This document shows positions 44,445 through 56,354 of a stretch of 64,000 nucleotides of DNA, one piece after another. The notes beneath the pieces were generated by a model that was not told where the DNA came from, did not search any database, and saw only the letters and a list, made by a program, of their open reading frames with translations. The position numbers and the translations under genes are program-made. The stretch comes from Dehalococcoidia bacterium. GTDB lineage: Bacteria; Chloroflexota; Dehalococcoidia; SM23-28-2; RBG-16-64-32. The stretch is taken from contig DAOUMV010000013.1 of the NCBI GenBank assembly GCA_034408935.1, positions 50,759-114,758 of the forward strand, read 5' to 3'. The first letter of the stretch is position 1, and each line of letters opens with the position of its first letter.

Positions 44445-45881
44445 TCACTCATCCCGCACTACCTCCTCCGCGGGCTTGACGCGGCCCGCGTACCAGGCCG
44501 GGACTATGCTCGCCAGAACCGCCAGTCCAACGGCGATAGCGAAGGCGTAGAGGAACACTTCCGGCGAGACGACGACGTCGACGTCCCCCAGGAAGCTACC
44601 GGCTCCCTGGAGTTGCGCCGCCGCTTGCTGCCCAGCGCCAGGGCCCGCTGGCGCCGCAGAATCCGAGACCAGCGCATTGGCAACGGTCTGCGCGAGAGGG
44701 AACGTGGCGAGGGCGCCGAGCAGCGCTGCTGCCACGCTCACCACCGCCGTTTCGATGGCGAACTGGGCGGTGACGTGCCAGTTGGAGGCGCCGCTAGCCT
44801 TAAGGATGCCGATCTCCTTGACGCGTCGTCGGGCCACCAGCCCGACCGAGACCAGGATCACGACAGCGCACGCCACGAGGCCAGCGATCATGCCGATCTG
44901 GCTGCTGTCTTCGGCATCGGCGATGGGGGCACTGATGCTCTCGAACCGGCTGGCTTCGTTTGTGACGTCTACAGTGTCCTCTCCCAGCGTGTTGCGGATA
45001 GTGTCGGCGACCGCCTCGGCATGATCGACGGTATCAACCTTCACGCTAGCGGCGCTGATCTCGCCTTCGCTGTCGAACAGGCTCTGCAGCGCCTTGAGGG
45101 GAATGAAGATGCTGTTGTCGCCGAACTGCGTGTCGGAGGAGTAGATACCGATGACCTTGATGCTCTCGCCCTGCAGTTCGAAGGTATCGCCCAACAGCAG
45201 ATCGTTCGTCTCCGCGAGGTCGGCGCCCAAGACGGCGACGTTCGCGTCGGTTTCGTCCTCCGCGAAAGTGCGTCCGGAGGTGATTTCTGCATCCTGGACG
45301 CCGGTCACCGAAAGAGAGTTGGGGTCATCTATGCCGGTGACCATAACTGAGGCGCGGAGCCCGCCAGGGGAGGCGCCGCTCGGAGCACCCTCGGGAGGCA
45401 TGGGGAGATTTCCGTCCTCAGGCATGTTTTCACCGGTAAACGGGTTTTCGCCCTCAGGCAGGTTTTCGCCGTTGAACGGAAGGTCGCCCTCAGGCGGGTT
45501 CCCCGCCGGGGGAGTGCCGCCCGCGAAGCGGTCTTCCAGATCGTCCGGGTTGATGGCCGACTCGAGTTCTTCGCCGGTGTATTGCATCGATAGTGTTGCC
45601 TGCACGCTTTCGACGTGCTCGAGCGAGGCGAGGTTCTCGATCTCTTCTTCGGAGAGAAGGTCGCCGTCGCCGCCGGCGAAGCCGCGGGAGCTGCCTGCGG
45701 GGCTGATGGCAATGTTCGTGCCCACCCCGGCTCTGATCTCGTCCAGCCGCTCTCCGAACGCTTGGTTCACAGTGATCATGATCAGGGTCAACCCCATGCT
45801 GACCGCGAGCACGGCAACGAGCAGGCCCGTGCGCAGCGGATTGCGGACGATCGTCCGGAGCGCCCGTCTGATAGTCCTCAT
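44445..45881 (-). CDS. ABC transporter permease (FtsX/MacB-type) with repeat-rich periplasmic insert
   Basis: N-terminal TM + large periplasmic domain + 3 C-terminal TM (FtsX fold); G-E-N-x-P-E-G tandem peptide repeats. Confidence 0.8.
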   Translation of the reverse strand: MRTIRRALRTIVRNPLRTGLLVAVLAVSMGLTLIMITVNQAFGERLDEIRAGVGTNIAISPAGSSRGFAGGDGDLLSEEEIENLASLEHVESVQATLSMQYTGEELESAINPDDLEDRFAGGTPPAGNPPEGDLPFNGENLPEGENPFTGENMPEDGNLPMPPEGAPSGASPGGLRASVMVTGIDDPNSLSVTGVQDAEITSGRTFAEDETDANVAVLGADLAETNDLLLGDTFELQGESIKVIGIYSSDTQFGDNSIFIPLKALQSLFDSEGEISAASVKVDTVDHAEAVADTIRNTLGEDTVDVTNEASRFESISAPIADAEDSSQIGMIAGLVACAVVILVSVGLVARRRVKEIGILKASGASNWHVTAQFAIETAVVSVAAALLGALATFPLAQTVANALVSDSAAPAGPGAGQQAAAQLQGAGSFLGDVDVVVSPEVFLYAFAIAVGLAVLASIVPAWYAGRVKPAEEVVRDE

Positions 45882-45909
45882 ACACTACCCCCTGTGAATC
45901 CTCATCGGG

Positions 45910-47157
45910 TCATTCCGCCCGCAGAGCCTCGATGGGGTCGAGGCGGGATGCTCGGAACGCGGGATAGATGCCAAAGAAGAGCCCGATCATGGCCGAGACG
46001 CCGACCGCGGCGGCGATGCTCCAGAGAGTAACCGTCGTCGTTACGGATGATCCGGTGCCGAAGTCCTGGCCGTCGGCGGCCTTCGCGATGAGCACGCCCG
46101 TGAGCACGCCGATCGCTCCACTGACGAGGGTAACGATGATCGCCTCGATGATGAACTGGAGAAGGATGTCGCCCCTGCTGGCGCCGACTGCTTTCCGGAT
46201 GCCTATCTCGCGCGTTCGTTCCGTCACCGATACCAGCATGATGTTCATGATCCCTATTCCGCCGACCACCAGCGAGATGCCGGCGATGGCACCGAGCAGG
46301 ATCGTCAGCGTACGGCTCACTTCTTTGGCTGTGGAGAGGAGATCGTCCTGGGTCTGGACCGTGAAGTCCTCGACGTAGTCGTGACGCTCAAGCAGAAGCT
46401 GTAGGACGTCGTCCTTCGTCTCGTCAACTTGATTGCCCTCAGTTACCTTGACGACGATCTGCTGAACGTTGGACTCGCCGCTTGGGTTGCGTCCGAACGG
46501 CACCCTGGTCTGGAAGGTGGTGAGCGGTATGATGATCTGGGTGTCCTCGTCGCCGCTTCCCCCCGCGCCCCTCGCCTCCATCACGCCTATCACGGTGAGA
46601 TTCAAAGAGAACGGTCCGAAGCTTTCACGTACCTCCTGGCCTATCGCATTCTCCGGTGTGTCGAAGAGCTCTTCGGCGACCGTCGCGCCGAGGACGACGT
46701 TGGTGGTCTTTCGACGCGCGTCCTCATCGTTGATGAACCTGCCGGTCGCGACCTGCCAGCTTCTCACGTACTCGAAGTCCGGCTCGGTGGCGGTTATCGC
46801 CCCTGAGGTACTGAGCCCGTTGCCGGTGATATCGTTCTCCAGATCAAGGTCGTACTGGGAGACCACCGCCTCTACAGACGAGATATCTTTGATCGCGTCG
46901 GCGTCGTCGGTGGTGAGCGTGACCGCACCGACGCCGGTCCGGTCGGCCTGCTCAGTCTCCCCCGCCTCGACAAAGACCAGGTTGCTGCCGAGTCCCCGGA
47001 CCTCCTTGGTCACGCCCTTTTGAGCACCCTGGCCGACGGCTATGAGGGCGATCACCGCTCCCACACCGATAACGATGCCCAGCATGGTGAGGCCGGTACG
47101 GAGCTTGTTCGAGGTGAGCTCCATGAGGGCCGTCCGGATCGTGTCTATGATGATCAT
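45910..47157 (-). CDS. ABC transporter permease (FtsX/MacB-type)
   Basis: Same architecture as neighbour. Confidence 0.82.
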   Translation of the reverse strand: MIIIDTIRTALMELTSNKLRTGLTMLGIVIGVGAVIALIAVGQGAQKGVTKEVRGLGSNLVFVEAGETEQADRTGVGAVTLTTDDADAIKDISSVEAVVSQYDLDLENDITGNGLSTSGAITATEPDFEYVRSWQVATGRFINDEDARRKTTNVVLGATVAEELFDTPENAIGQEVRESFGPFSLNLTVIGVMEARGAGGSGDEDTQIIIPLTTFQTRVPFGRNPSGESNVQQIVVKVTEGNQVDETKDDVLQLLLERHDYVEDFTVQTQDDLLSTAKEVSRTLTILLGAIAGISLVVGGIGIMNIMLVSVTERTREIGIRKAVGASRGDILLQFIIEAIIVTLVSGAIGVLTGVLIAKAADGQDFGTGSSVTTTVTLWSIAAAVGVSAMIGLFFGIYPAFRASRLDPIEALRAE

Positions 47158-47882
47158 TCCGGCTCCCCCTTATGGCCGTCGGGAGGCAGTGCCGCCAGGA
47201 CACGATTGCCCTCCGGCGGCGCGTCCGAGACGATGCGACCGTCGCGGAGTTGGATGACACGGCGCGTATAGGCCGCAAGGTCCATCTCGTGAGTAACGAG
47301 GGCGATTGTGATGCCGCGTTCGCTGTTGAGACGCTCGAACATCTTCATCAAGTCCAGCGAGGTCTTGGTATCGAGGGCGCCCGTCGGCTCATCGGCGAGG
47401 ATCAACGCGGGATTCGCCACCAGCGCGCGAGCGATGGCGACGCGTTGCTGCTCGCCGCCCGATAGCTGCGTCGGCCGGTGGTGGGCGCGCTCTCGCAGGC
47501 CGACCTCCGCCAGGGCACGCATCGCCCGTCTGTGGCGGTGGTTCGCGCCCCGGTAGATGAGTGGCAGCTCGACTTGGGCGATCGCGGGCAGGCGCGAGAG
47601 GAGATTGAATGACTGGAAGACGAAGCCGATGCGCCGACCGCGGATCCTGGCGAGCTGGGCCTCGCTCATGCGGCGCACGTCGCGCCCCTCCAGTTCGTAG
47701 ATGCCGCGCGTGGGCCTGTCGAGACAGCCGAGGATATGCATAAGGGTCGACTTACCAGACCCGGAGGGCCCCACGATGGCCAGGAACTCGCCGCGTTCGA
47801 TGTCGAGGTCGATGCCCCGCAGCGCGGGCACGGGCACGTCGCCGGCGCGATAGATCTTGGTGATGCCGCGCAGGCGTATCAC
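47154..47882 (-). CDS. ABC transporter ATP-binding protein (MacB/LolD type)
   Basis: Walker [10 protein letters not shown], signature [15 protein letters not shown], Walker [12 protein letters not shown]. Confidence 0.9.
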
Positions 47883-49999
47883 GGCATTCCTCCCGGGGCA
47901 GCGCCGCCGGGGAAGCCCTGTCCTTGTCCGGGGGAGAACCCGTCGGGGAAGCCGGGCTCGCCGCCTTCCTGCTCCGTAGTAGACGACGTCGACGTTGATG
48001 AGCGGCTGGGGAGCAGAATCGTCTGACCCTCCTCAAGCCCCCTTACGATCTCCGTGTTCGTTCCATCGCTGAGCCCTGCCTCAACCTCGACGCTCTGGGT
48101 CGATCCGTCCTCCATCAGGACATCGACGTAGCTTCCGCCTCTCATGGTCTGGACGGCCGACGTGGAAACCATGAGGACGTCCTGAGCCTGATCCACAGTG
48201 ATGGTCACAGAGGTGTTCATGCCGGGCAGAAGCTCCGCGACCGATTCGGAGAAATCAGGCATCACGCCGGCGCCGCCAGCCGGAGTCGCCTCCGCATCTG
48301 GAATATCAGCCGACGTCGGTGCTCCGCCAGCGCCAGCCAGTGCACCCGCTAGGTTCCCTCCCAGCGCCTCTAACTCGTCGGCGCTCATGATGGTCGCGTG
48401 TACGGCGTACGTCACCACTCCCTGAGTGGTGGTCGGATTCGTTTCGACGGAGTCGACCACGACGGGCAACCGCGTGTCCTCAAGAGCGTCGAATGTGGCG
48501 ATACCCGTCTGGCCGGACTCAATGTCAGGCACATCGGATTCGGTGACGGTGAGATCGAGACTCACCGCATCGGGAGTGTTGAGGACAATCGCTGCCTCTG
48601 TGCTTGTCTCTCCGGTTCCACCGGCCGATTCCCCTACCTCGATATTGAGCGCCGCCACGGTGCCGTCAAACGGCGCTACGAGCTTCGCTTCCTCCAGGTC
48701 CTCTTCCGCCTTCTCCAAAGAGAGCTCAGCAAGGCGTACCTGGTTTTGCTGGAGCTCGATCTCCTCTATGTCGGCGCCGTCCAACAGGTCGTTGAGCTGT
48801 GCCTGCGCCGTGACGAGTGCCGCAGCGGCTGTGTCAACGTTACCCTGCGCCTCCGCCAGTTCGTCCTCTGTCGGTTTCTCGCTGAGTTCCGCTAGCTGCT
48901 CGATCGCAAGGTCGAGCGCCTCCTGCGCCGACACAACGGCGGCGTCCACCGAGGCTATCTCTTCATCGCTGGGACCGGCCTGTGCGTCCTCGAGATCGTC
49001 CTTGGCCTCTTGCAGATCCTCTTCCGCTGTCTCAACCGCATCGTCGGCGCTGTCCTTCGACGCCACGGCGTTCTCATAGGACGTGTTGGCGGTCAAAACC
49101 TCTGAGGCCTGCTTTGCGACTTCCTTCGAGCCGGTGACCGTGGCCTCCATCAGAACAGCCTCATCTGCAGAGGAGATCGGCGCCGCTCGCTTCGTGCAGA
49201 ACGAGGGAGCACCATCAACGGCGCAATAGCCCGTTTCCACGCTCTTCAACGACGACTCGGCCGACTGAAGGCTACGTGCGGCGTCCTCGGCCTCGCCCTC
49301 GCTGTCCTCCAGCGCGTCCTCCGCCATCCTCACGGCTTCTTCGGCGGCGTCGATCGCTTCCCCGCTTGCCTCGTAGAGGTTTTCGCGAGACTCTTCCGCC
49401 TGGGCCACCTGTCCTTCCGCTGATGTTACCGATTGCTCCGCTGAGAGGGTCTCAACTTCGGTGGGCCCGTCCAGCGTTTCGTCGAGCGCACGCTGCGCCT
49501 GATCCAAGCTGACCTGCGCTTGCGCCACGCTCTGCTCGGCCGAGGCTATTTCGGCCTCGTCGGGGTCCTTCAAGAGCTGGCTCAGATTGACCTGGGCTGA
49601 AGCAAGGTTCACCTCCGCTTCTGTCGTGGCTCGCTTCAGCTCGTCTGACTCAAGCTTGGCAAGCACGTCTCCCTTCTTGACTTCCTGCCCGATGCTGACC
49701 TTCACAGCCGATACGGTCCCGGACTGGCTGAACGATATCTCCGCCGTTGACTGTGAGACGACGACGCCGCTCGTGCTGACCGTCGTAGTGATGGAGCCCC
49801 GCTCCACCGTCGCCGTCTGGGTTTCCTCCGCTGTGGAGCTGCCGCCAGCCAGCGCCAGCGACCAGAGCGCGTAGGCGCCCGCGGCGATCAGGGCTGCGAG
49901 CACCGCGAGGCCAATCAAGCGGCCACGCCAGCGGTGCCCGCCGCCATCCAGCAGATCGTCGTATTCGTCTATCTCATCGAGGACGGGCGAGTCACTCAT
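47879..49999 (-). CDS. Periplasmic adaptor (MacA/HlyD family) with unusually long coiled coil (706 aa)
   Basis: N-terminal TM anchor, beta-barrel/lipoyl segments flanking a very long Glu/Ala-rich coiled coil; Gly/Pro-rich C-terminal tail. Confidence 0.75.
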   Translation of the reverse strand: MSDSPVLDEIDEYDDLLDGGGHRWRGRLIGLAVLAALIAAGAYALWSLALAGGSSTAEETQTATVERGSITTTVSTSGVVVSQSTAEISFSQSGTVSAVKVSIGQEVKKGDVLAKLESDELKRATTEAEVNLASAQVNLSQLLKDPDEAEIASAEQSVAQAQVSLDQAQRALDETLDGPTEVETLSAEQSVTSAEGQVAQAEESRENLYEASGEAIDAAEEAVRMAEDALEDSEGEAEDAARSLQSAESSLKSVETGYCAVDGAPSFCTKRAAPISSADEAVLMEATVTGSKEVAKQASEVLTANTSYENAVASKDSADDAVETAEEDLQEAKDDLEDAQAGPSDEEIASVDAAVVSAQEALDLAIEQLAELSEKPTEDELAEAQGNVDTAAAALVTAQAQLNDLLDGADIEEIELQQNQVRLAELSLEKAEEDLEEAKLVAPFDGTVAALNIEVGESAGGTGETSTEAAIVLNTPDAVSLDLTVTESDVPDIESGQTGIATFDALEDTRLPVVVDSVETNPTTTQGVVTYAVHATIMSADELEALGGNLAGALAGAGGAPTSADIPDAEATPAGGAGVMPDFSESVAELLPGMNTSVTITVDQAQDVLMVSTSAVQTMRGGSYVDVLMEDGSTQSVEVEAGLSDGTNTEIVRGLEEGQTILLPSRSSTSTSSTTEQEGGEPGFPDGFSPGQGQGFPGGAAPGGMP

Positions 50000-50026
50000 C
50001 TCATAGCCCCCTATGTGGCTTTTTGT

Positions 50027-50095
50027 AGCTGATATTTCCAGCGTACTCTGCTGTCGTTAAGGAGGAGTTGGAGAAGGATTAGAGTTCCCTAATCC
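50027..50095 (-). promoter_or_regulatory. Conserved cis-element copy 1 (upstream of adaptor/ABC efflux operon)
   Basis: TTAGGGAACTCTAAT inverted repeat + CCAAC + TTAACGACAG block, 30-95 nt upstream of start codon. Confidence 0.55.
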
Positions 50096-50146
50096 GCGAG
50101 CGCCGCGAGACGGCTTTCTTTCATCGGCGAGTCGAGAGGTTGTGCG

Positions 50147-50365
50147 TCAAGGCGTCGCGCCCGCAAACGAGGTCTGCCGTGGCCTCGCCGGCGAAGGCGC
50201 TATCCTTGCCGCTGCAGGCTCAGTCGCCGCCTCCACGGGAACGATGCGCGCGCATTGGAGGCAGCGCCACTCCGGCTCGTCGCTGAGGTCGAGGTAGGCG
50301 TCGCCACCGCATCTGAGGCAGCAGCGAAGACGAAACGCCCGGTTCGATCCAGTTACCATCCCCAC
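50147..50365 (-). CDS. Small zinc-ribbon protein (72 aa)
   Basis: CxxC-x15-CxxC; GGAGGA RBS; directly downstream of htrA. Confidence 0.4.
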   Translation of the reverse strand: MGMVTGSNRAFRLRCCLRCGGDAYLDLSDEPEWRCLQCARIVPVEAATEPAAARIAPSPARPRQTSFAGATP

Positions 50366-50386
50366 CGCTCCTCCGGCCCCGGCAGC

Positions 50387-51505
50387 TCATCCCCTGTAGT
50401 CGCTTGGGAACGCGGCCAGAGTAGCCGACAGCTCCAGGGTGTCCTCTCCACGAACCACGGTCAGCGTCACGTCGTCTCCCGCCTTTTTGCCGTTCAGGAA
50501 GCTGATCAGGTCCTCGATGCTTTCAACCGGCTCTCCGTCGACGGCGGTGATGACGTCCCCACCTGCGTCGGGTTCCCCCTGAAACGTAGTGCCACCGCCC
50601 CGGAGCCCGGCGTCATCGGCCGGACTTCCGGAGACGACATCCAACACGTATGCTCCCCGGTCGACCGTGAGGTCTAGGGCTTCCGCCATCTCGCCGGTGA
50701 GGGTCGTGCCGCCGATCCCCAGCCAAGGGCGTTCAACCGTGCTCCCTTCCGTCAGGCGGGACAGGACTCCCTTGGCGGTATCGATTGGGACAGCGAAGCC
50801 CACTCCGTCCGCTGACTGACTTTCGATGGCGGTGTTGACGCCGATGACCTCCCCGTCAGAGTCGAGTAAGGGCCCGCCGGAGTTGCCGGGGTTGAGAGCG
50901 GCATCGGTCTGGATGACGCCGGTGATGGGGCGGCCGTCGTCACCGGTCAGGCTCCGGTCGAGGCCGCTGACGACGCCGACGGTTATCGTGCCCTCAAGCT
51001 CGTAGGGGCTGCCGAGGGCGATGGCCATCTGGCCCGGCTGCAGGTCGGTGGAGTCCCCCAAAGTGAGGGGCGTGATGTCCGAGACCTCAGAAGCGTCAAC
51101 CTCCACCAGGGCGAGGTCGTCCGCGGAATCGACCCCGAGCACCTCACCATCGAGCTCTGTGTCGTCGCTGAGGGTCACGGTCACGCTGGATGCGTCGTCC
51201 ACTACGTGACTGTTGGTGAGGATGTGCCCCGCGTCATCGATGAGAAACCCTGATCCGGTGCCTACGCCCACGCTAATCTGGACCACGGCTGGGATCGCCT
51301 CATCGTAGATGTCAACTACCTGCTGCTCTTCGACCAACGCTGGCCCCGTTGCCACGGGCTCCGCCTGGACCGACTCCTCTGCAGCAGTGTCCGCGGCAGA
51401 GGTGCCCGACTCAGAGCCGGAGTCAAGGCTCAGGGCCACGAGCGAGATGGCAAGCGCAGCGATGGCCATAAGGGCCGTCACTCCCAACGCGAGCTTCGTC
51501 TTCAT
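50387..51505 (-). CDS. htrA: HtrA/DegP-family serine protease with PDZ domain
   Basis: Catalytic triad context (TNSHVV, DLALV, GNSGGPL), C-terminal PDZ; signal/TM N-terminus. Confidence 0.9.
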
Positions 51506-51537
51506 CGCCTTCCTCCCTCTTCACTTCCCGAGTGACT

Positions 51538-51600
51538 TCTGAATCCAAGGTAAGTCCCTGACGTTAAAACGGTATTGGCGGAAGATTAGATTTCTCTAGT
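51538..51600 (-). promoter_or_regulatory. Conserved cis-element copy 2 (upstream of htrA)
   Basis: CTAGAGAAATCTAAT + CCAAT + TTTAACGTCAG + TGGATTCAGA. Confidence 0.55.
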
Positions 51601-51703
51601 GTGACGCGATCTGTTTGGCGCAGCTCGATGGGGTGCACAAGCGAAAAGGGGGGAGGCCAGGCAAGCACCTGGCCTCCGTCCATGCGCGTTTGCGAGGCAG
51701 CCT

Positions 51704-52381
51704 CTAGGCCGTCACATCGGACGTTTCGGTGGTCTCGGACTCCTCATCGTGATCGGAGAAGGGGGCGAACCACATTCCGCCGAAACCGCGCGGACCGCCC
51801 CGCATGCTGCCGAAAGCGTGGAAACACCCCTCGGCGTTGACGATTCCGTCGATCATGCCTTCGGTGTGCTGGTAGAAGTCGTCGGCCTGGTCCTGGGTGA
51901 GATCGCCGTCGGAAACCATCTCATCGAGCTGCGCCTTGATCTTGTCAAGGAGCGCCGCCTTGAAGTCGTCCACGCTCATCCCCTGAGCCTCGGCCAGCTC
52001 GGCAAGGGAGTTGCCGTCCGCGAGTTGCTCCATCAGGTCGGCGCGGGTCATGCCCAGCACGTCGGCGGCGTTCTTCATCACGTCGAAGTGGGCGCGCCAT
52101 ATTCCACCGTGGAGCCCGCGGAAGAAGAAGTTGCCTTCCCGCAGCCGCTCTCCCTGCTCCTCCGTAAGGCGCCCCTCGTCCACCGCCTCGTCGATGGTCT
52201 CGTCTCTTGCCTCGTCGATGGCGGTCTTGAGCTCGTCCTCGCTGACACCCAGCTTCTCGGCGACCTTGGCGAGGAACGACCCAACGAGCCCATCGTCCTC
52301 ATCGGCCGCCGCCCCGCTGATGGCCACGACGCCCAGGGCCAGGACGGCGACCGCCACCGCTATCATCAGCAGCCTCTTCAC
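51704..52381 (-). CDS. LTXXQ-motif (CpxP/Spy-like) secreted protein, paralog 1
   Basis: Signal peptide; LTEEQ and LTQDQ motifs; GTG start with GAGGAGG RBS (aligned to paralog 2 MKRLMIIAV). Confidence 0.7.
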   Translation of the reverse strand: MKRLLMIAVAVAVLALGVVAISGAAADEDDGLVGSFLAKVAEKLGVSEDELKTAIDEARDETIDEAVDEGRLTEEQGERLREGNFFFRGLHGGIWRAHFDVMKNAADVLGMTRADLMEQLADGNSLAELAEAQGMSVDDFKAALLDKIKAQLDEMVSDGDLTQDQADDFYQHTEGMIDGIVNAEGCFHAFGSMRGGPRGFGGMWFAPFSDHDEESETTETSDVTA

Positions 52382-52431
52382 CTCTGCACCTCCTCGCATT
52401 GCCTCTTCATGGCGTTAGTTCTCCCAAGGCA

Positions 52432-52494
52432 TCTGAATCCAAGATAGGTGGCTGTCGTTAAACGGGCATTGGAAAGAGATTAGAATTCTCTAAT
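52432..52494 (-). promoter_or_regulatory. Conserved cis-element copy 3 (upstream of LTXXQ paralog 1)
   Basis: TTAGAGAATTCTAAT + CCAAT + TTTAACGACAG + TGGATTCAGA. Confidence 0.55.
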
Positions 52495-52573
52495 GTGGGC
52501 GGTGACTTGCCCGAACGGGCGGAGGTCGGGTTCATACCCGACCCCCGCCCTGTCCGGTTCGCGGCCGCTGCGC

Positions 52574-53239
52574 CTAGGCCGTCACATCGGACGTCTCCGT
52601 GGTTTCGGACTGGTCATCGGGAGGGGAACCGAACTGCGGCCCGCCGAAACCACCTGGGCCGGGCCTCATGCCGCCGAAACCGGGGCCACAGCCCGTGCCG
52701 GCCACGATGTCGTCGATGTTGTCCTGGGTGCGCTGGAGCATCTCGTCGGCCTGGTCCTGAGTAAGGTCGCCTGCGGCAACCGATTCATCGAGCTGGGTCT
52801 TGACCTGATCCAGGAGCGCGGCCTTGAAGTCGTCTTCGCTCATGCCCTGAGCCTCGGCCACGTCGGCCAGCGAGTTGCCGTCCTGCAGTTGTTCCATGAG
52901 GTCGTCCTTGGTCATGCCCAGCACCTCAGCGGCAGCGGTCCTGATGTGCACGCGCTCATGCCCCATTCGCCCACCGCCGAAGGGGAAGTCACTCTCCTGC
53001 AGCCGGTCAGCCTGTTCCTCGGTGAGGCTACCATCAGCCACGGCCTCATCCAGCGTCTCGCTCCGGGCCTCGTCGATGGCGGTCTGAAGTTCATCCTCGC
53101 TCACGCCCAGCTTCTCGGCGACCCTGGCGAGGAACGACCCGACGAGCCCGTCGTCTTCCTGGGCGGCCGCCCCGCCAATGGCCACGACGCCCAGGGCCAG
53201 GACGGCCGCCGCCACTGCTATTATCATCAGTCTCTTCAT
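52574..53239 (-). CDS. LTXXQ-motif (CpxP/Spy-like) secreted protein, paralog 2
   Basis: ~70% identical to paralog 1 including identical C-terminal ...SETTETSDVTA. Confidence 0.75.
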   Translation of the reverse strand: MKRLMIIAVAAAVLALGVVAIGGAAAQEDDGLVGSFLARVAEKLGVSEDELQTAIDEARSETLDEAVADGSLTEEQADRLQESDFPFGGGRMGHERVHIRTAAAEVLGMTKDDLMEQLQDGNSLADVAEAQGMSEDDFKAALLDQVKTQLDESVAAGDLTQDQADEMLQRTQDNIDDIVAGTGCGPGFGGMRPGPGGFGGPQFGSPPDDQSETTETSDVTA

Positions 53240-53342
53240 CTGTCACCTCCTTGTCGTGTTGTGATCTTGTCAGCGATTCCGGCGTGGTCGGCTACGTCAT
53301 TCTCTTCATCTGCACACCTCCTTGTGTGACCTCCTGTGTGAC

Positions 53343-53407
53343 TGCTGAATCCAGCGTAGAGCGCTGTTGTTAGGGAGGCGTTGAAGCAGGACTAAAATTT
53401 TCTAATG
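53343..53407 (-). promoter_or_regulatory. Conserved cis-element copy 4 (upstream of LTXXQ paralog 2, divergent from two-component operon)
   Basis: TTAGAAAATTTTAGT + TCAAC + CTAACAACAG + TGGATTCAGC. Confidence 0.5.
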
Positions 53408-53478
53408 CAGCTAGCCTTGTTCTCTAATGATCTCTTAATCTTGGCGCCCTACAATGTGTCGTAAGGAGGAGCTTTCGG

Positions 53479-54150
53479 GTGTATGTCCTAATAGTGGAAG
53501 ACGAGCGGCGGCTGGCCCAGGTGGTAAGCAAGGTCCTGGAGGAGGAGGGCCACACGGTCGACGTCTCCTACGACGGGGAGGAGGGGCTGGCGATGGGAAT
53601 GGAGGGCTCCCACGACGTCATCGTTCTGGACATCCTGCTGCCCGTCATGGACGGACTGGAGGTGTGCCGCGCCCTCCGCGCCAACCGGGTCGATACCCCC
53701 GTGCTCCTCCTGACAGCCCTGGACGCGGTCGAGGACCGCGTGCGCGGGCTGGACGCCGGCGCCGACGATTACCTGCCTAAGCCGTTCGCCTTCCAAGAAC
53801 TGCTGGCCCGCCTGCGCGCATTGGGTCGCCGGCGCGTGCAGGTCCGTGAGCCCGATCGACTTCGCGCGGCAGATCTCATGCTGGACCTGCGACGGCGCCG
53901 CGCAGAGCGCAACGGCAAGACCATCGAGCTCAGCCCTAAGGAGTTCGCCCTGCTGGAGTTCCTCATGCGCAACGAGGGCCGCGTCGTCACACGCACCCAG
54001 ATCCTGGATCACGTGTGGGGGTACGAGTACTCGCCGGACTCCAACCTGGTGGACGTGTACGTGACATACCTGCGGCGCAAGGTGGATCGAGGCCACGACC
54101 GCAGCCTCATCCGCACCGTGCGCGGCACCGGCTACGCTCTGGAGGAGTAA
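53479..54150 (+). CDS. OmpR-family response regulator
   Basis: Receiver (VEDE...DILLP, T, K) + winged helix (LSPKEFALLEFLMRNEGRV...VRGTGYAL); GTG start with AAGGAGG RBS. Confidence 0.9.
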   Translation: MYVLIVEDERRLAQVVSKVLEEEGHTVDVSYDGEEGLAMGMEGSHDVIVLDILLPVMDGLEVCRALRANRVDTPVLLLTALDAVEDRVRGLDAGADDYLPKPFAFQELLARLRALGRRRVQVREPDRLRAADLMLDLRRRRAERNGKTIELSPKEFALLEFLMRNEGRVVTRTQILDHVWGYEYSPDSNLVDVYVTYLRRKVDRGHDRSLIRTVRGTGYALEE

Positions 54151-54151
54151 C

Positions 54152-55426
54152 ATGTTCGGCGCGGCACGCTGGCGTCTCACGCTCTGGTTCGCCCTGGCGT
54201 TCGGGGCCATCCTGCTGGTCATCGGCGCGGCGGTGTACCTCACCACCCGCGCCGTCCTCTTCGACCAGGTGAATGACGACCTCGAGTCGCGGGCGGGGCG
54301 GGAGGAGCGCGTGCTCACGCCGCGGCTGCCGGGGCGCGGTCCCGGCGGTCCTGTGCGCGACATCGTCATCGGGCCGACGTTCACGACTGCGGGCTACTTC
54401 TACGCCCTGGTCGACTCCACAGGCGAACTCCTGGCCGGGACCGCCAACGTCGACCCTGCCGGCCTGGTCAGTGAGGACGCCCTCCAAAAAGCGCTCGCCG
54501 ACGGCGTCGCCTTCGCGGACACCAAGTCGTCTGAGGGGGACTCGCTGCGGGTCTACGTGGTGAGCCTGGGGACATCAGAAGATGATGAACTGCTGATGGA
54601 GGTGGGGCGGAGCACGGAGCCGGAGGAGCAGGCGCTTCAACGGCTGCTGCTGGTGCTGATCGGCGGCGGCGGCGCCGGCCTGGGCCTGGCCCTCGTCGGC
54701 GGCTACGCCCTCGCCGGTCGAGCCCTGCGCCCCATCCGATCGGCGATGGACTCCCAGCGGGCCTTCATCGCCGACGCCTCCCACGAGCTGCGGACACCGC
54801 TATCGGTGATCCGCGCCAACGCGGAGCTGATGAAGCGTCACTCCAGGGAGCCCGTCCGCACCAACGGAGAGGCGGTGGACGACATCATCGGCGAGTCGGA
54901 CAGGCTGGCGAGGCTGGTGGGCCAGATGATGACGCTGGCCCGGATCGACGCCGGCCAGGCATCGTTGTCCCTGTCCGAGGTGGCGCTGGACGAACTGGCG
55001 GAGGAGGTTGCGCGCGGCATGCGCCTGCTGGCCGAACGTCGCGGCGTCGCGTTCGAGGCCGCTGTGGACGGCCCCCTGCCCGTACGGGGGGATAAGGACC
55101 GCCTGCGGGAGCTGATCGTGATCCTGAGCGATAACGCCATCAAGTACACGGACGCGGGCGGCCGGGTGCGACTGGAGGTGCGCCGCGCCTCCGGCGGGAA
55201 GACCACGGTGCGGGTCACGGATACGGGGCACGGGATACCCCCGGAGGCGCTGCCCCACATCTTCGACCGGTTCTACCGCGTGGACAAGGCGCGGTCGCGG
55301 CAGGCGGGTGGCACGGGGCTGGGGCTGGCGATCGCGAAGTGGATCTCGGAGGCGCACGGGGGCTCCATCCGGGCGGAGAGCGCCCCCGGTGTGGGGAGCT
55401 CGTTCACGGTAGAGCTGCCGGCGTAG
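54152..55426 (+). CDS. Sensor histidine kinase
   Basis: Two TM helices, HAMP, H-box ASHELRTPL, HATPase N/G boxes. Confidence 0.9.
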   Translation: MFGAARWRLTLWFALAFGAILLVIGAAVYLTTRAVLFDQVNDDLESRAGREERVLTPRLPGRGPGGPVRDIVIGPTFTTAGYFYALVDSTGELLAGTANVDPAGLVSEDALQKALADGVAFADTKSSEGDSLRVYVVSLGTSEDDELLMEVGRSTEPEEQALQRLLLVLIGGGGAGLGLALVGGYALAGRALRPIRSAMDSQRAFIADASHELRTPLSVIRANAELMKRHSREPVRTNGEAVDDIIGESDRLARLVGQMMTLARIDAGQASLSLSEVALDELAEEVARGMRLLAERRGVAFEAAVDGPLPVRGDKDRLRELIVILSDNAIKYTDAGGRVRLEVRRASGGKTTVRVTDTGHGIPPEALPHIFDRFYRVDKARSRQAGGTGLGLAIAKWISEAHGGSIRAESAPGVGSSFTVELPA

Positions 55427-55537
55427 CGGGGCGGCCGCCCTGCATCAGACCGCCCCAAGAGGAGAGACGCAGCCGGACTTGACATCAGCAAGTGCACATG
55501 GTGTCTACTACCTGCAGACTAATCGAGGAGGATCATC

Positions 55538-55819
55538 ATGCTGTTCGTCGTCACTCACGAGCACACGCCCGAGCTCTGCCCAACGGACGACCCGGCGCCG
55601 GTGCACAAGCTGACCGACAAGAACCACATCAAGGAGTCGGGGGTGAAGGTGGTGGGGAGCTATATAGCGTCCCTCGAGCACGTCCTCTTCTTCGTGCTGG
55701 AGGCGGACGACTACGCCCAGGTGGTGCGGTACTTGCGACCGATCATGAAGATCGGCACGCCGGACATCGTGCCGGCTCAGACGCTGTCCAGGGGCCTCGG
55801 CCCCTTCTACAAGGGATAG
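55538..55819 (+). CDS. Small conserved hypothetical protein (93 aa), paralog A
   Basis: RBS GAGGAGG; MLFVVTHEHTPELCP... ; 75-80% identical to 56073-56354. Confidence 0.6.
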   Translation: MLFVVTHEHTPELCPTDDPAPVHKLTDKNHIKESGVKVVGSYIASLEHVLFFVLEADDYAQVVRYLRPIMKIGTPDIVPAQTLSRGLGPFYKG

Positions 55820-55845: not shown

Positions 55846-55929
55846 GGCGACGGAGGCTCCGGGGGCTCCATCCGGGCGGAGAGCGCCCCCGGCGTGGGGA
55901 GCTCGTCTACGGTAGAGCCGCCGGCGTAG
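55846..55929 (+). pseudogene. Duplicated fragment of histidine-kinase 3' end (last ~21 codons + stop)
   Basis: ~82 bp 95% identical to 55362-55443; in-frame remnant GGSIRAESAPGVGSSSTVEPPA*. Confidence 0.7.
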
Positions 55930-56072
55930 CGGGGCGGCCGCCAGGGCGAGGCTGCAGGCGGGCCTTCTACAGGCTCCCTTGACGGGCAGGCAGGACGAAC
56001 GGCGTCAACATCCGGGGGCGCTGGTCGTGTCGTATCCCGATAGTACCCGCTGACGAATCAAGGAGAGAAACT

Positions 56073-56354
56073 ATGCTGTTCGTTGTTACTCATGAGCACA
56101 CGCCGGAGCTCTGTCCGTCGGACGATCCGACGCCGGCACATAAGCTGGCGGACGAGAAGCACATCAAGGAGTCGGGGGTGAAGGTGGTGGGGGCGTGGGT
56201 GGCGCCGCCGGAGCACACCTTCTACCTGGTGCTGGAGGCGGACGAGTACGGCCACGTGGTGAGGTACCTGCGGCCGATGATGAAGATCGGGACGCCGGAC
56301 ATCGTGCCGGTGCAGGAGCTGAGCGACACGCTGAACCACTTCCCGAAGCGGTAG
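56073..56354 (+). CDS. Small conserved hypothetical protein (93 aa), paralog B
   Basis: RBS AAGGAGAG; tandem duplicate of 55538-55819. Confidence 0.6.
   Translation: MLFVVTHEHTPELCPSDDPTPAHKLADEKHIKESGVKVVGAWVAPPEHTFYLVLEADEYGHVVRYLRPMMKIGTPDIVPVQELSDTLNHFPKR

Follow-up and report, generated by a model that had tools for sequence, protein, structure and literature searches.

The DNA analysed here, referred to below as the window, is a stretch of 64,000 nucleotides (nt) of contig DAOUMV010000013.1 from a Dehalococcoidia bacterium (assembly GCA_034408935.1). At 44.4–55.4 kb it carries a cluster in which exporter, htrA and LTXXQ units lie on the minus strand and an operon of a response regulator (RR) and a histidine kinase (HK) lies on the plus strand. 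The subject of the analysis is an element of about 64 nt preceding each of the four minus-strand units, which an initial annotation had described as a composite motif of a candidate envelope-stress regulon. The genes and hairpins of the cluster are listed below (aa, amino acids; ORF, open reading frame).

44445–49999, minus strand: efflux-type operon of four genes (Pfam)
47879–49999, minus strand: HlyD/MacA-like adaptor, first gene of the efflux-type operon
47154–47882, minus strand: ABC ATPase of the efflux-type operon
45910–47157 and 44445–45881, minus strand: two MacB/FtsX permeases of the efflux-type operon
50387–51505, minus strand: HtrA/DegP-family serine protease, 372 aa (Pfam Trypsin_2 and PDZ)
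50147–50365, minus strand: C4 zinc-ribbon protein, 72 aa, Cys-rich, downstream of htrA
51704–52399, minus strand: secreted LTXXQ-repeat protein, paralog 1, longest ORF 231 aa
51639–51677, minus strand: terminator-like hairpin, GGAGGCCAGG...CCUGGCCUCC then CCCCUUUUCG, 3' of paralog 1
52574–53239, minus strand: secreted LTXXQ-repeat protein, paralog 2, 221 aa, weak DUF2680 match
52510–52557, minus strand: strong GC hairpin, 3' of paralog 2
53479–54150, plus strand: OmpR/PhoB-family RR, 223 aa, the proposed binder
54152–55426, plus strand: sensor HK, 424 aa (HisKA and HATPase_c)

The gene identities of the initial annotation (adaptor/ABC, HtrA, OmpR-type RR, histidine kinase) hold in Pfam; the RR matches Response_reg (6.9e-29) and Trans_reg_C (7.6e-30), and HisKA and HATPase_c are found in the cognate HK. 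For paralog 1, alternative starts are a database call at 52366 (220 aa) and a GTG at 52381, giving MKRLLMI. The terminator-like hairpin is situated between the paralog 1 unit and copy 2 of the element, and the GC hairpin between the paralog 2 unit and copy 3. The hairpins part the transcription units, and therefore a promoter of its own is needed by each unit.

The copies of the element are given below with their units, named A to D, and the hexamer read as the −10 element.

Copy 1, 50032–50095, minus strand, upstream of the MacA-like/ABC operon: A 50085–50093, B 50077–50083, C 50067–50072, D 50055–50061, −10 TACGCT 50040–50045
Copy 2, 51539–51602, minus strand, upstream of htrA and the zinc-ribbon ORF: A 51592–51600, B 51584–51590, C 51574–51579, D 51562–51568, −10 TACCTT 51547–51552
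Copy 3, 52433–52496, minus strand, upstream of LTXXQ paralog 1: A 52486–52494, B 52478–52484, C 52468–52473, D 52456–52462, −10 TATCTT 52441–52446
Copy 4, 53345–53408, minus strand, upstream of LTXXQ paralog 2 in the intergenic region divergent from the RR/HK operon: A 53398–53406, B 53390–53396, C 53380–53385, D 53368–53374, −10 TACGCT 53353–53358
Fifth, shorter copy, 53418–53458, plus strand, promoter of the RR/HK operon with two direct units and a −10: TCTCTAAT 53421–53428, TCTCTTAAT 53431–53439, 10 nt, −10 TACAAT 53450–53455

The four minus-strand copies were found where they had been claimed, upstream of the MacA/ABC operon, htrA and the two LTXXQ genes, and all sub-blocks of the composite motif are present in them. 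The start codon follows the end of the −10 by 40, 41 and 41 nt in three copies and by 113 nt in copy 4, in rough agreement with the 30–95 nt proposed between the last block and the start codon. Aligned with MAFFT, the copies (~64 nt each) have no internal gaps, and a repeat search returned one gapless four-member family of 66 nt with 61–79% identity to the reference copy. The last (discriminator) block of copy 1 has a 3-nt insertion (TGGAAATATCAG), and copy 4 is the most degenerate (TTAGAAAATTTTAGT, TCAAC, CTAACAACAG). With a position weight matrix (PWM) derived from the four copies, these score 79–87 bits, the next best match on either strand of the 64-kb window being below 0; none of the sub-blocks (the inverted repeat, the middle block and TAAC..CAG..TA...TGGA) has another good match in the window. 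The gap between these scores is far beyond chance, and the element is therefore not a dispersed repeat within the window.

On the transcribed strand the element consists of unit A ATTAGAGAA, unit B TCTAAT, unit C TCCAAY, unit D yTTAAs, 11 nt, TAnnnT and GGAttCA, copy 3 reading ACATTAGAGAATTCTAATCTCTTTCCAATGCCCGTTTAACGACAGCCACCTATCTTGGATTCAG on the minus strand. Unit A is an inverted half-site, the reverse complement of TTCTCTAAT, and B, C and D are direct half-sites with an exact 11-bp period, so that CTAAT, CCAAT and TTAAC start 11 nt apart. ATTAGA, which forms the left arm of the inverted repeat, reads TCTAAT on the complementary strand. The TAnnnT hexamers between the last two blocks are TACGCT, TACCTT, TATCTT and TACGCT in copies 1 to 4. 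The blocks of the former description, 'inverted repeat plus separate blocks', thus stand; its division is better replaced by four 11-bp-phased half-sites followed by a −10. The TAnnnT hexamer, the 11-bp phasing and the fifth copy on the plus strand before the RR gene had been overlooked.

These features, tandem half-sites at an 11-bp period with a −10 close by and no −35 consensus, resemble a pho-box-like promoter. The −35 hexamer is absent because units C and D take its position. GGAttCA could be a discriminator with a C-A start site 7 nt past the −10, and the predicted start site of copy 2 lies near 51540. A consensus scan found no TTGACA/TATAAT-type promoter in 49900–53600, which is expected for promoters without a −35 and uninformative on its own.

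Conservation was followed in 25 protein-anchored instances from the window and Dehalococcoidia metagenome-assembled genomes (MAGs). The conserved positions are ATT (3–5), GAA (9–11), TCTAA (13–17), TCCAA (24–28), TTAA (36–39), T51, A52 and T56, with the AA cores exactly 11 bp apart. T51, A52 and T56 are each conserved in 24 of 25 instances; units A and B are conserved as well as C and D. Position 40, the C of the putative 'AAC', is C11/G9/T4/A1, and GGAT (57–60) is weakly conserved. The flanks of the element vary freely across genomes whose proteins share 40–60% identity.

The copies could alternatively represent a dispersed repeat (REP- or MITE-like) or an RNA element (a leader or a small RNA, sRNA) with no role in transcription initiation. 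Although repeated sequences of ~65 nt with an inverted repeat are typical of REP/MITE elements, the window holds only four copies in 64 kb, all at the 5' ends of one cluster and oriented with the downstream gene. Moreover, conservation is specific to the half-sites and the −10 while the flanks vary, and what is conserved precedes the predicted start site. An Rfam search at E<=1 gave no family match and a single sRNA match at chance level, on which a known RNA family or leader was rejected. The probability of a repeat or RNA element is next to negligible.

The promoter part could also be recognised by a sigma factor of the extracytoplasmic function (ECF) type, as the initial annotation had allowed. 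TTAAC would then serve as the −35 ('AAC') and GGAT(TCAG) as the −10, and the upstream inverted repeat would be the site of a separate regulator. ECF sigmas commonly control htrA and envelope genes, and the 16 nt from the C of TTAAC to GGAT in the window copies fit ECF geometry. Position 40 is nevertheless unconserved and GGAT weak, and a housekeeping-type −10 is therefore favoured over an ECF promoter; T51, A52 and T56, which would fall inside the supposed spacer, are near-invariant. No sigma or anti-sigma factor is encoded among the Pfam-checked ORFs flanking the cluster (about 44.4–60.5 kb), and the element co-occurs with the RR, not with a sigma factor. The RR promoter, too, has the upstream units in common with the copies, yet its −10 is TACAAT and GGAT is missing. 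The ECF proposal was not borne out and is very improbable.

The RR promoter could be defined from 54 unique divergent regions as TCTTTAAyG-nTTCyTTAAT-N10-TACAAT, two direct units 11 bp apart with a gap to the −10 that matches the target promoters. A PWM of this promoter, made from other genomes only, scores the RR promoter of the window at 38.6 bits. On the minus strand, its matches at ranks 1, 3, 4 and 5 are the C-D-(−10) stretches of the four copies, each in exact register; therefore, one architecture is common to five promoters.

Unit A matches the RR-promoter units ATTAAAGAA and ATTAAGGAA in sequence and orientation, and in the divergent regions it stands in 11-bp phase with them, 22 bp away. 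In the window, unit A of copy 4 (reverse complement CTAAT) is likewise 22 bp upstream of the distal unit of the fifth copy and in phase. These observations bear on another possibility, in which two proteins share the element: the RR on C-D, and another dimeric regulator, such as a repressor whose gene lies elsewhere, on the near-palindrome A/B (ATTAGAGAAnTCTAAT). An inverted pair such as A/B is atypical for head-to-tail dimers of the OmpR family, and the pair is retained even in the non-divergent copies 1–3. It is set against this that unit A has the sequence, orientation and phase of the RR-promoter units, that A and B are conserved to the same degree as C and D, and that no second regulator gene is conserved beside the element in the loci examined. 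Two proteins sharing the element is thus an unlikely arrangement.

The distribution of the element was followed through its neighbours. The LTXXQ-repeat protein family occurs in Dehalococcoidia/Chloroflexota MAGs, and the LTXXQ-repeat protein of the window itself is also present in metagenome assemblies SRR14802572 and SRR14802574. When species-representative genomes were scanned with the family alignment, 80 loci were obtained. At least 13 Dehalococcoidia loci have the RR/HK genes and the LTXXQ gene in divergent orientation, with an RR that is 62–90% identical to that of the window even if the LTXXQ protein is only ~40% identical. There the window PWM finds the element before the LTXXQ gene, htrA, macA and a permease-ABC operon.

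Metagenomes were scanned by a DNA pattern alone, with no protein involved (TTRRNNRANTCTARN6TYCAAN7YTAAN11TANNNT). At least 120 loci were obtained, almost all GC-rich and with PWM scores well above background. The counts that follow are among the matches listed. These loci contain at least 180 instances, of which at least 144 are unique. An RR orthologue (61–90% identity) is present in 45 of the 120 loci, its start nearly always 50–77 nt from a copy on the opposite strand. A same-orientation ORF with a ribosome-binding site follows within 260 nt in 127 of the 144 unique instances. The first downstream gene encodes an LTXXQ-repeat protein in 53, a zinc-ribbon protein in 16, HtrA in 10, MacA in 4, a permease-ABC system in 4 and another protein in 40; in 17 there is no ORF or the contig ends. 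Among the 'other' proteins of at least 70 aa, 25 of 30 have an N-terminal hydrophobic stretch, and the group includes a TAT-signal Dioxygenase_C-like protein, YceI, DUF7405, Lcl_C and small acidic secreted proteins.

In a soil lineage (RR ~62–65% identical; L113, L137, L154, L176, L186, L190 and others) the element stands before the gene of the TAT-signal Dioxygenase_C-like protein, with 13 such instances among the matches listed, and also before genes of YceI-like, DUF7405, Lcl_C and very acidic small secreted proteins. This gene content indicates that the regulon shifts between lineages and yet stays extracytoplasmic.

The RR of the window has the recognition helix SNLVDVYVTYLRRKV, and the helix SNLVDVYV[TS]YLRRK is nearly invariant across the lineages that keep the element. 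Among solved structures, DrrD of T. maritima, an uncharacterised protein, is the nearest. The HK has two transmembrane segments and an extracytoplasmic domain of ~130 aa with the conserved motifs GGYFYA, T.SS.G..LRVYV and GRS.EPE. Sensing through cysteine or metal was rejected for this kinase, the conserved sensor residues containing no Cys and no His/Met cluster. The RR was compared with NCBIfam as follows:

TIGR01387, heavy-metal subfamily (CusR/CopR/SilR): 243 bits, cut-off 279.2, the best score and below threshold
RppA: 214.6 bits, cut-off 250
PhoB: 205 bits, cut-off 296
MtrA: 203.3 bits, cut-off 300
CpxR: 142.5 bits, cut-off 341
BaeR: about 142 bits, cut-off 380

No equivalog cut-off was reached, and therefore the specificity of the RR is not transferable from a characterised orthologue; transfer of function from a named RR was rejected accordingly.

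Each copy is taken, with a probability of roughly 0.8, to combine a sigma-70-type promoter that depends on an activator with an array of half-sites to which the adjacent OmpR/PhoB-family RR would bind. The whole would be a promoter in the style of PhoB, CiaR and MprA, serving an MprAB-like two-component system for envelope stress. This interpretation is built from sequence comparison, starting from features that are seen directly: the anatomy of the element, its conservation, the gene associations and the physical linkage to RR orthologues. The binding-site-plus-promoter module proposed initially is supported by the in-register conservation upstream of orthologous genes, by the RR gene lying divergent beside a copy in 45 of the 120 pattern-found loci, by the units and geometry shared with the RR's own promoter, and by the nearly invariant recognition helix.

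Several points weigh against it. The link between RR and element is drawn from adjacency and co-occurrence, and, as stated above, the RR falls short of every NCBIfam equivalog cut-off. Four half-sites, one of them inverted, differ from the textbook OmpR-family site of two direct repeats, and unit A may be the site of another protein. With a half-site as short and degenerate as YYYAAB, the exact boundaries are uncertain. The metagenome pattern demanded TA...T and is hence unusable for judging conservation of the −10, for which the 25 protein-anchored instances were used. Finally, about 60% of the pattern-found loci listed show no RR; most of these contigs are only 1–5 kb long, and the missing RR is therefore uninformative rather than contrary.

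With the RR as the binding protein, the circuit could operate as follows. The membrane kinase would sense an extracytoplasmic disturbance, the presumed signal, and phosphorylate the RR. RR dimers would occupy C-D, as at the pho box or the CiaR box, and A-B, and RNA polymerase would thereby be recruited, the effect being activation rather than repression. The operons of the two LTXXQ-repeat proteins, HtrA with the zinc-ribbon protein, and the MacA/MacB-type ABC exporter would be turned on, and the two-unit module on the opposite strand would autoregulate the RR/HK operon.

The geometry is that of class II pho-box promoters. In E. coli, PhoB binds tandem 11-bp direct repeats ~10 nt upstream of the −10 at promoters without a −35, and PhoB is among the top NCBIfam matches of the RR. 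Unlike in the pho box, the half-site here is unrelated to CTGTCAT, and the regulon is unconnected with phosphate.

A similar arrangement is found in the CiaRH system of streptococci, where a direct repeat with an 11-bp period and a TTAA core replaces the −35 and CiaR, an OmpR-family RR, activates htrA. Between the CiaR box, NTTAAG-N5-TTTAAG, and the −10 there are 10 nt, a C stands just before the start site, and the G of TTTAAG was reported to be essential (PMC3091779). The CiaR recognition helix VVEVYVSKVRKKL is similar to LVDVYVTYLRRKV here. In contrast to CiaR, the position equivalent to this G is the variable position 40, unit C is TCCAAY and there are the extra units A and B. The phylum differs as well, and no csRNA genes were seen here.

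The system also bears a likeness to MprAB-PepD/HtrA of Actinobacteria (M. tuberculosis, C. glutamicum), where the genes for an OmpR-family RR and an HK likewise share a cluster with one for an htrA-family protease. In the window, htrA lies within 2 kb and is preceded by a copy. The sites recur in the RR promoter of both systems, in keeping with autoregulation. Two 8-bp direct repeats 3 nt apart reportedly make up the MprA box of M. tuberculosis (He and Zahrt, 2005). The MprA of C. glutamicum recognises TKTTAAGAAM, which its own promoter carries as TTTTAAGAGA; the protein also binds the htrA promoter and is subject to positive autoregulation (PMC12113857). This motif resembles the units ATTAAGAGA, ATTAAGGAA and ATTAAAGAA here, though it is short and the comparison was made by eye. 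The system here differs from MprAB in that secreted LTXXQ-repeat proteins, a zinc-ribbon protein and a MacAB-type exporter belong to the regulon and that one inverted unit accompanies the three direct units of the operator; no link to sigE/sigB was seen in the window.

Clusters of LTXXQ-like genes with htrA, an HK and an RR of ~50% identity also occur in Actinomycetota MAGs (Gaiellaceae, Thermoleophilia, Acidimicrobiia; L020–L067). Their intergenic regions contain 2–4 TTCTTAG/TCTCAG units at an 11-bp period (L024 5719–5760 and 7796–7850; L029 5671–5700), and their recognition helix SNSLDVYIGYLRRKTE is close to SNLVDVYVTYLRRKVD here. This suggests that the clusters of Actinomycetota and Dehalococcoidia go back to a common ancestral MprAB-like module in which the half-site has drifted. 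Taken together, the comparisons point to an MprAB-like clade, to which the system may belong.

The likeness to the Cpx, Bae and Zra systems of Proteobacteria concerns the circuit. In cpxP-cpxRA and zraP-zraSR, the two-component genes are divergent from the gene of a small secreted helical protein with the LTXXQ motif. As here, a secreted accessory gene stands divergent from a two-component operon, with HtrA/DegP and efflux functions in the regulon. The half-site here is not GTAAA, and the RR is below the CpxR and BaeR cut-offs. Of the earlier view that the regulon mirrors Cpx/Bae/Css responses, the circuit logic holds; membership of the Cpx family is not supported, given the CpxR score and the lack of a CpxP/Spy family or fold match.

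Two-component control of htrA-family proteases is shared with CssRS/CutRS of Bacillus and Streptomyces as well. CutRS/CssRS control these proteases in response to extracytoplasmic misfolding; the CutR motif is TAWATAAA, and CutS senses via two conserved cysteines (PMC12802291). Unlike the element here, TAWATAAA is a single 8-mer at variable positions, and the sensor domain here contains no cysteine.

Both LTXXQ-repeat paralogs (~220 aa) carry literal LTEEQ/LTQDQ motifs. In Pfam they give a weak DUF2680 match only and none to the CpxP/Spy LTXXQ family, and a profile search of the PDB with the LTXXQ-repeat protein retrieved no CpxP, Spy, ZraP or other solved structure. Foldseek against the PDB found nothing at E<=0.001 with an AlphaFold model that is all-helical with a pLDDT of 71.6, so that this is a test of moderate strength. 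From the former label 'CpxP/Spy-like' the motif remains; the searches gave no backing for the family and fold parts. A kinship with CpxP, Spy or ZraP was rejected accordingly, and the resemblance to CpxP would at most be a functional analogy.

The leader behind copy 4 contains, at 53292–53309 (minus strand), a strong ribosome-binding site and a five-codon ORF, MKRMT*, 43 nt past the −10. This ORF is at the canonical start distance and resembles a truncated copy of paralog 2's own start; the real start of paralog 2 follows 72 nt past it, with the ribosome-binding site and start region duplicated, and the arrangement is kept in the closest relative, L001. In one Dehalococcoidia clade (L009, L011, L012, L013, L015, L016) a GC-rich hairpin GGAGGAGnCCnnGGGGTCTCCTTC is conserved in the 5' leader between the element and the LTXXQ gene, for example at about 1545–1590 in L009; L016 has it in duplicate. 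The hairpin may represent a leader structure or attenuator.

The zinc-ribbon protein has the pattern R-F-R-L..C.RCGGDAFLD..DG.EWRCLQC, no signal peptide and no Pfam or NCBIfam match. Homologues were found in L085, L090, L099, L102, L115, L122, L161, L166, L170, L187 and other loci. Since its gene stands first behind the element in at least 16 unique metagenome instances, it is a core member of the regulon.

Beyond the kinase gene, the last 83 nt of HK are duplicated at 95% identity (55357–55439 and 55860–55942), as is the downstream gene of a 93-aa DUF3303 protein at 80% identity (55506–55786 and 56041–56321). Together these repeats look like a tandem segmental duplication directly after the two-component operon.

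Chloroflexota and Actinomycetota could share an ancient, MprAB-like circuit for envelope stress, of which the module would be the Chloroflexota form, with a core extending beyond HtrA; this broader idea is tentative and rather doubtful. If it is true, the secreted LTXXQ-repeat/DUF2680-like protein, always encoded beside the kinase, could be a CpxP-like extracytoplasmic chaperone and feedback modulator of the sensor. The cytoplasmic C4 zinc-ribbon protein of ~72 aa, whose gene comes first after the operator in many lineages, could be a new partner in the regulation, and Cpx-like logic would have arisen independently, or very early, outside Proteobacteria.

The regulon is of an ordinary stress-response kind in a little-studied phylum, and the general view of two-component regulation is unchanged by it. 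Sediments, aquifers and the deep ocean harbour Dehalococcoidia and related Chloroflexota in abundance, most of them uncultured; almost nothing is known of their transcriptional regulation or of how their unusual envelope is monitored. For these organisms the analysis provides a concrete operator model (half-sites, phasing, −10 and predicted start site) and a regulon across many genomes that comprises HtrA, LTXXQ-repeat proteins, a MacAB-type exporter, the zinc-ribbon protein and assorted exported proteins. The promoter architecture could be used for reading metatranscriptomes, and the LTXXQ-repeat and zinc-ribbon families, both uncharacterised, are flagged as conserved members of the stress response.

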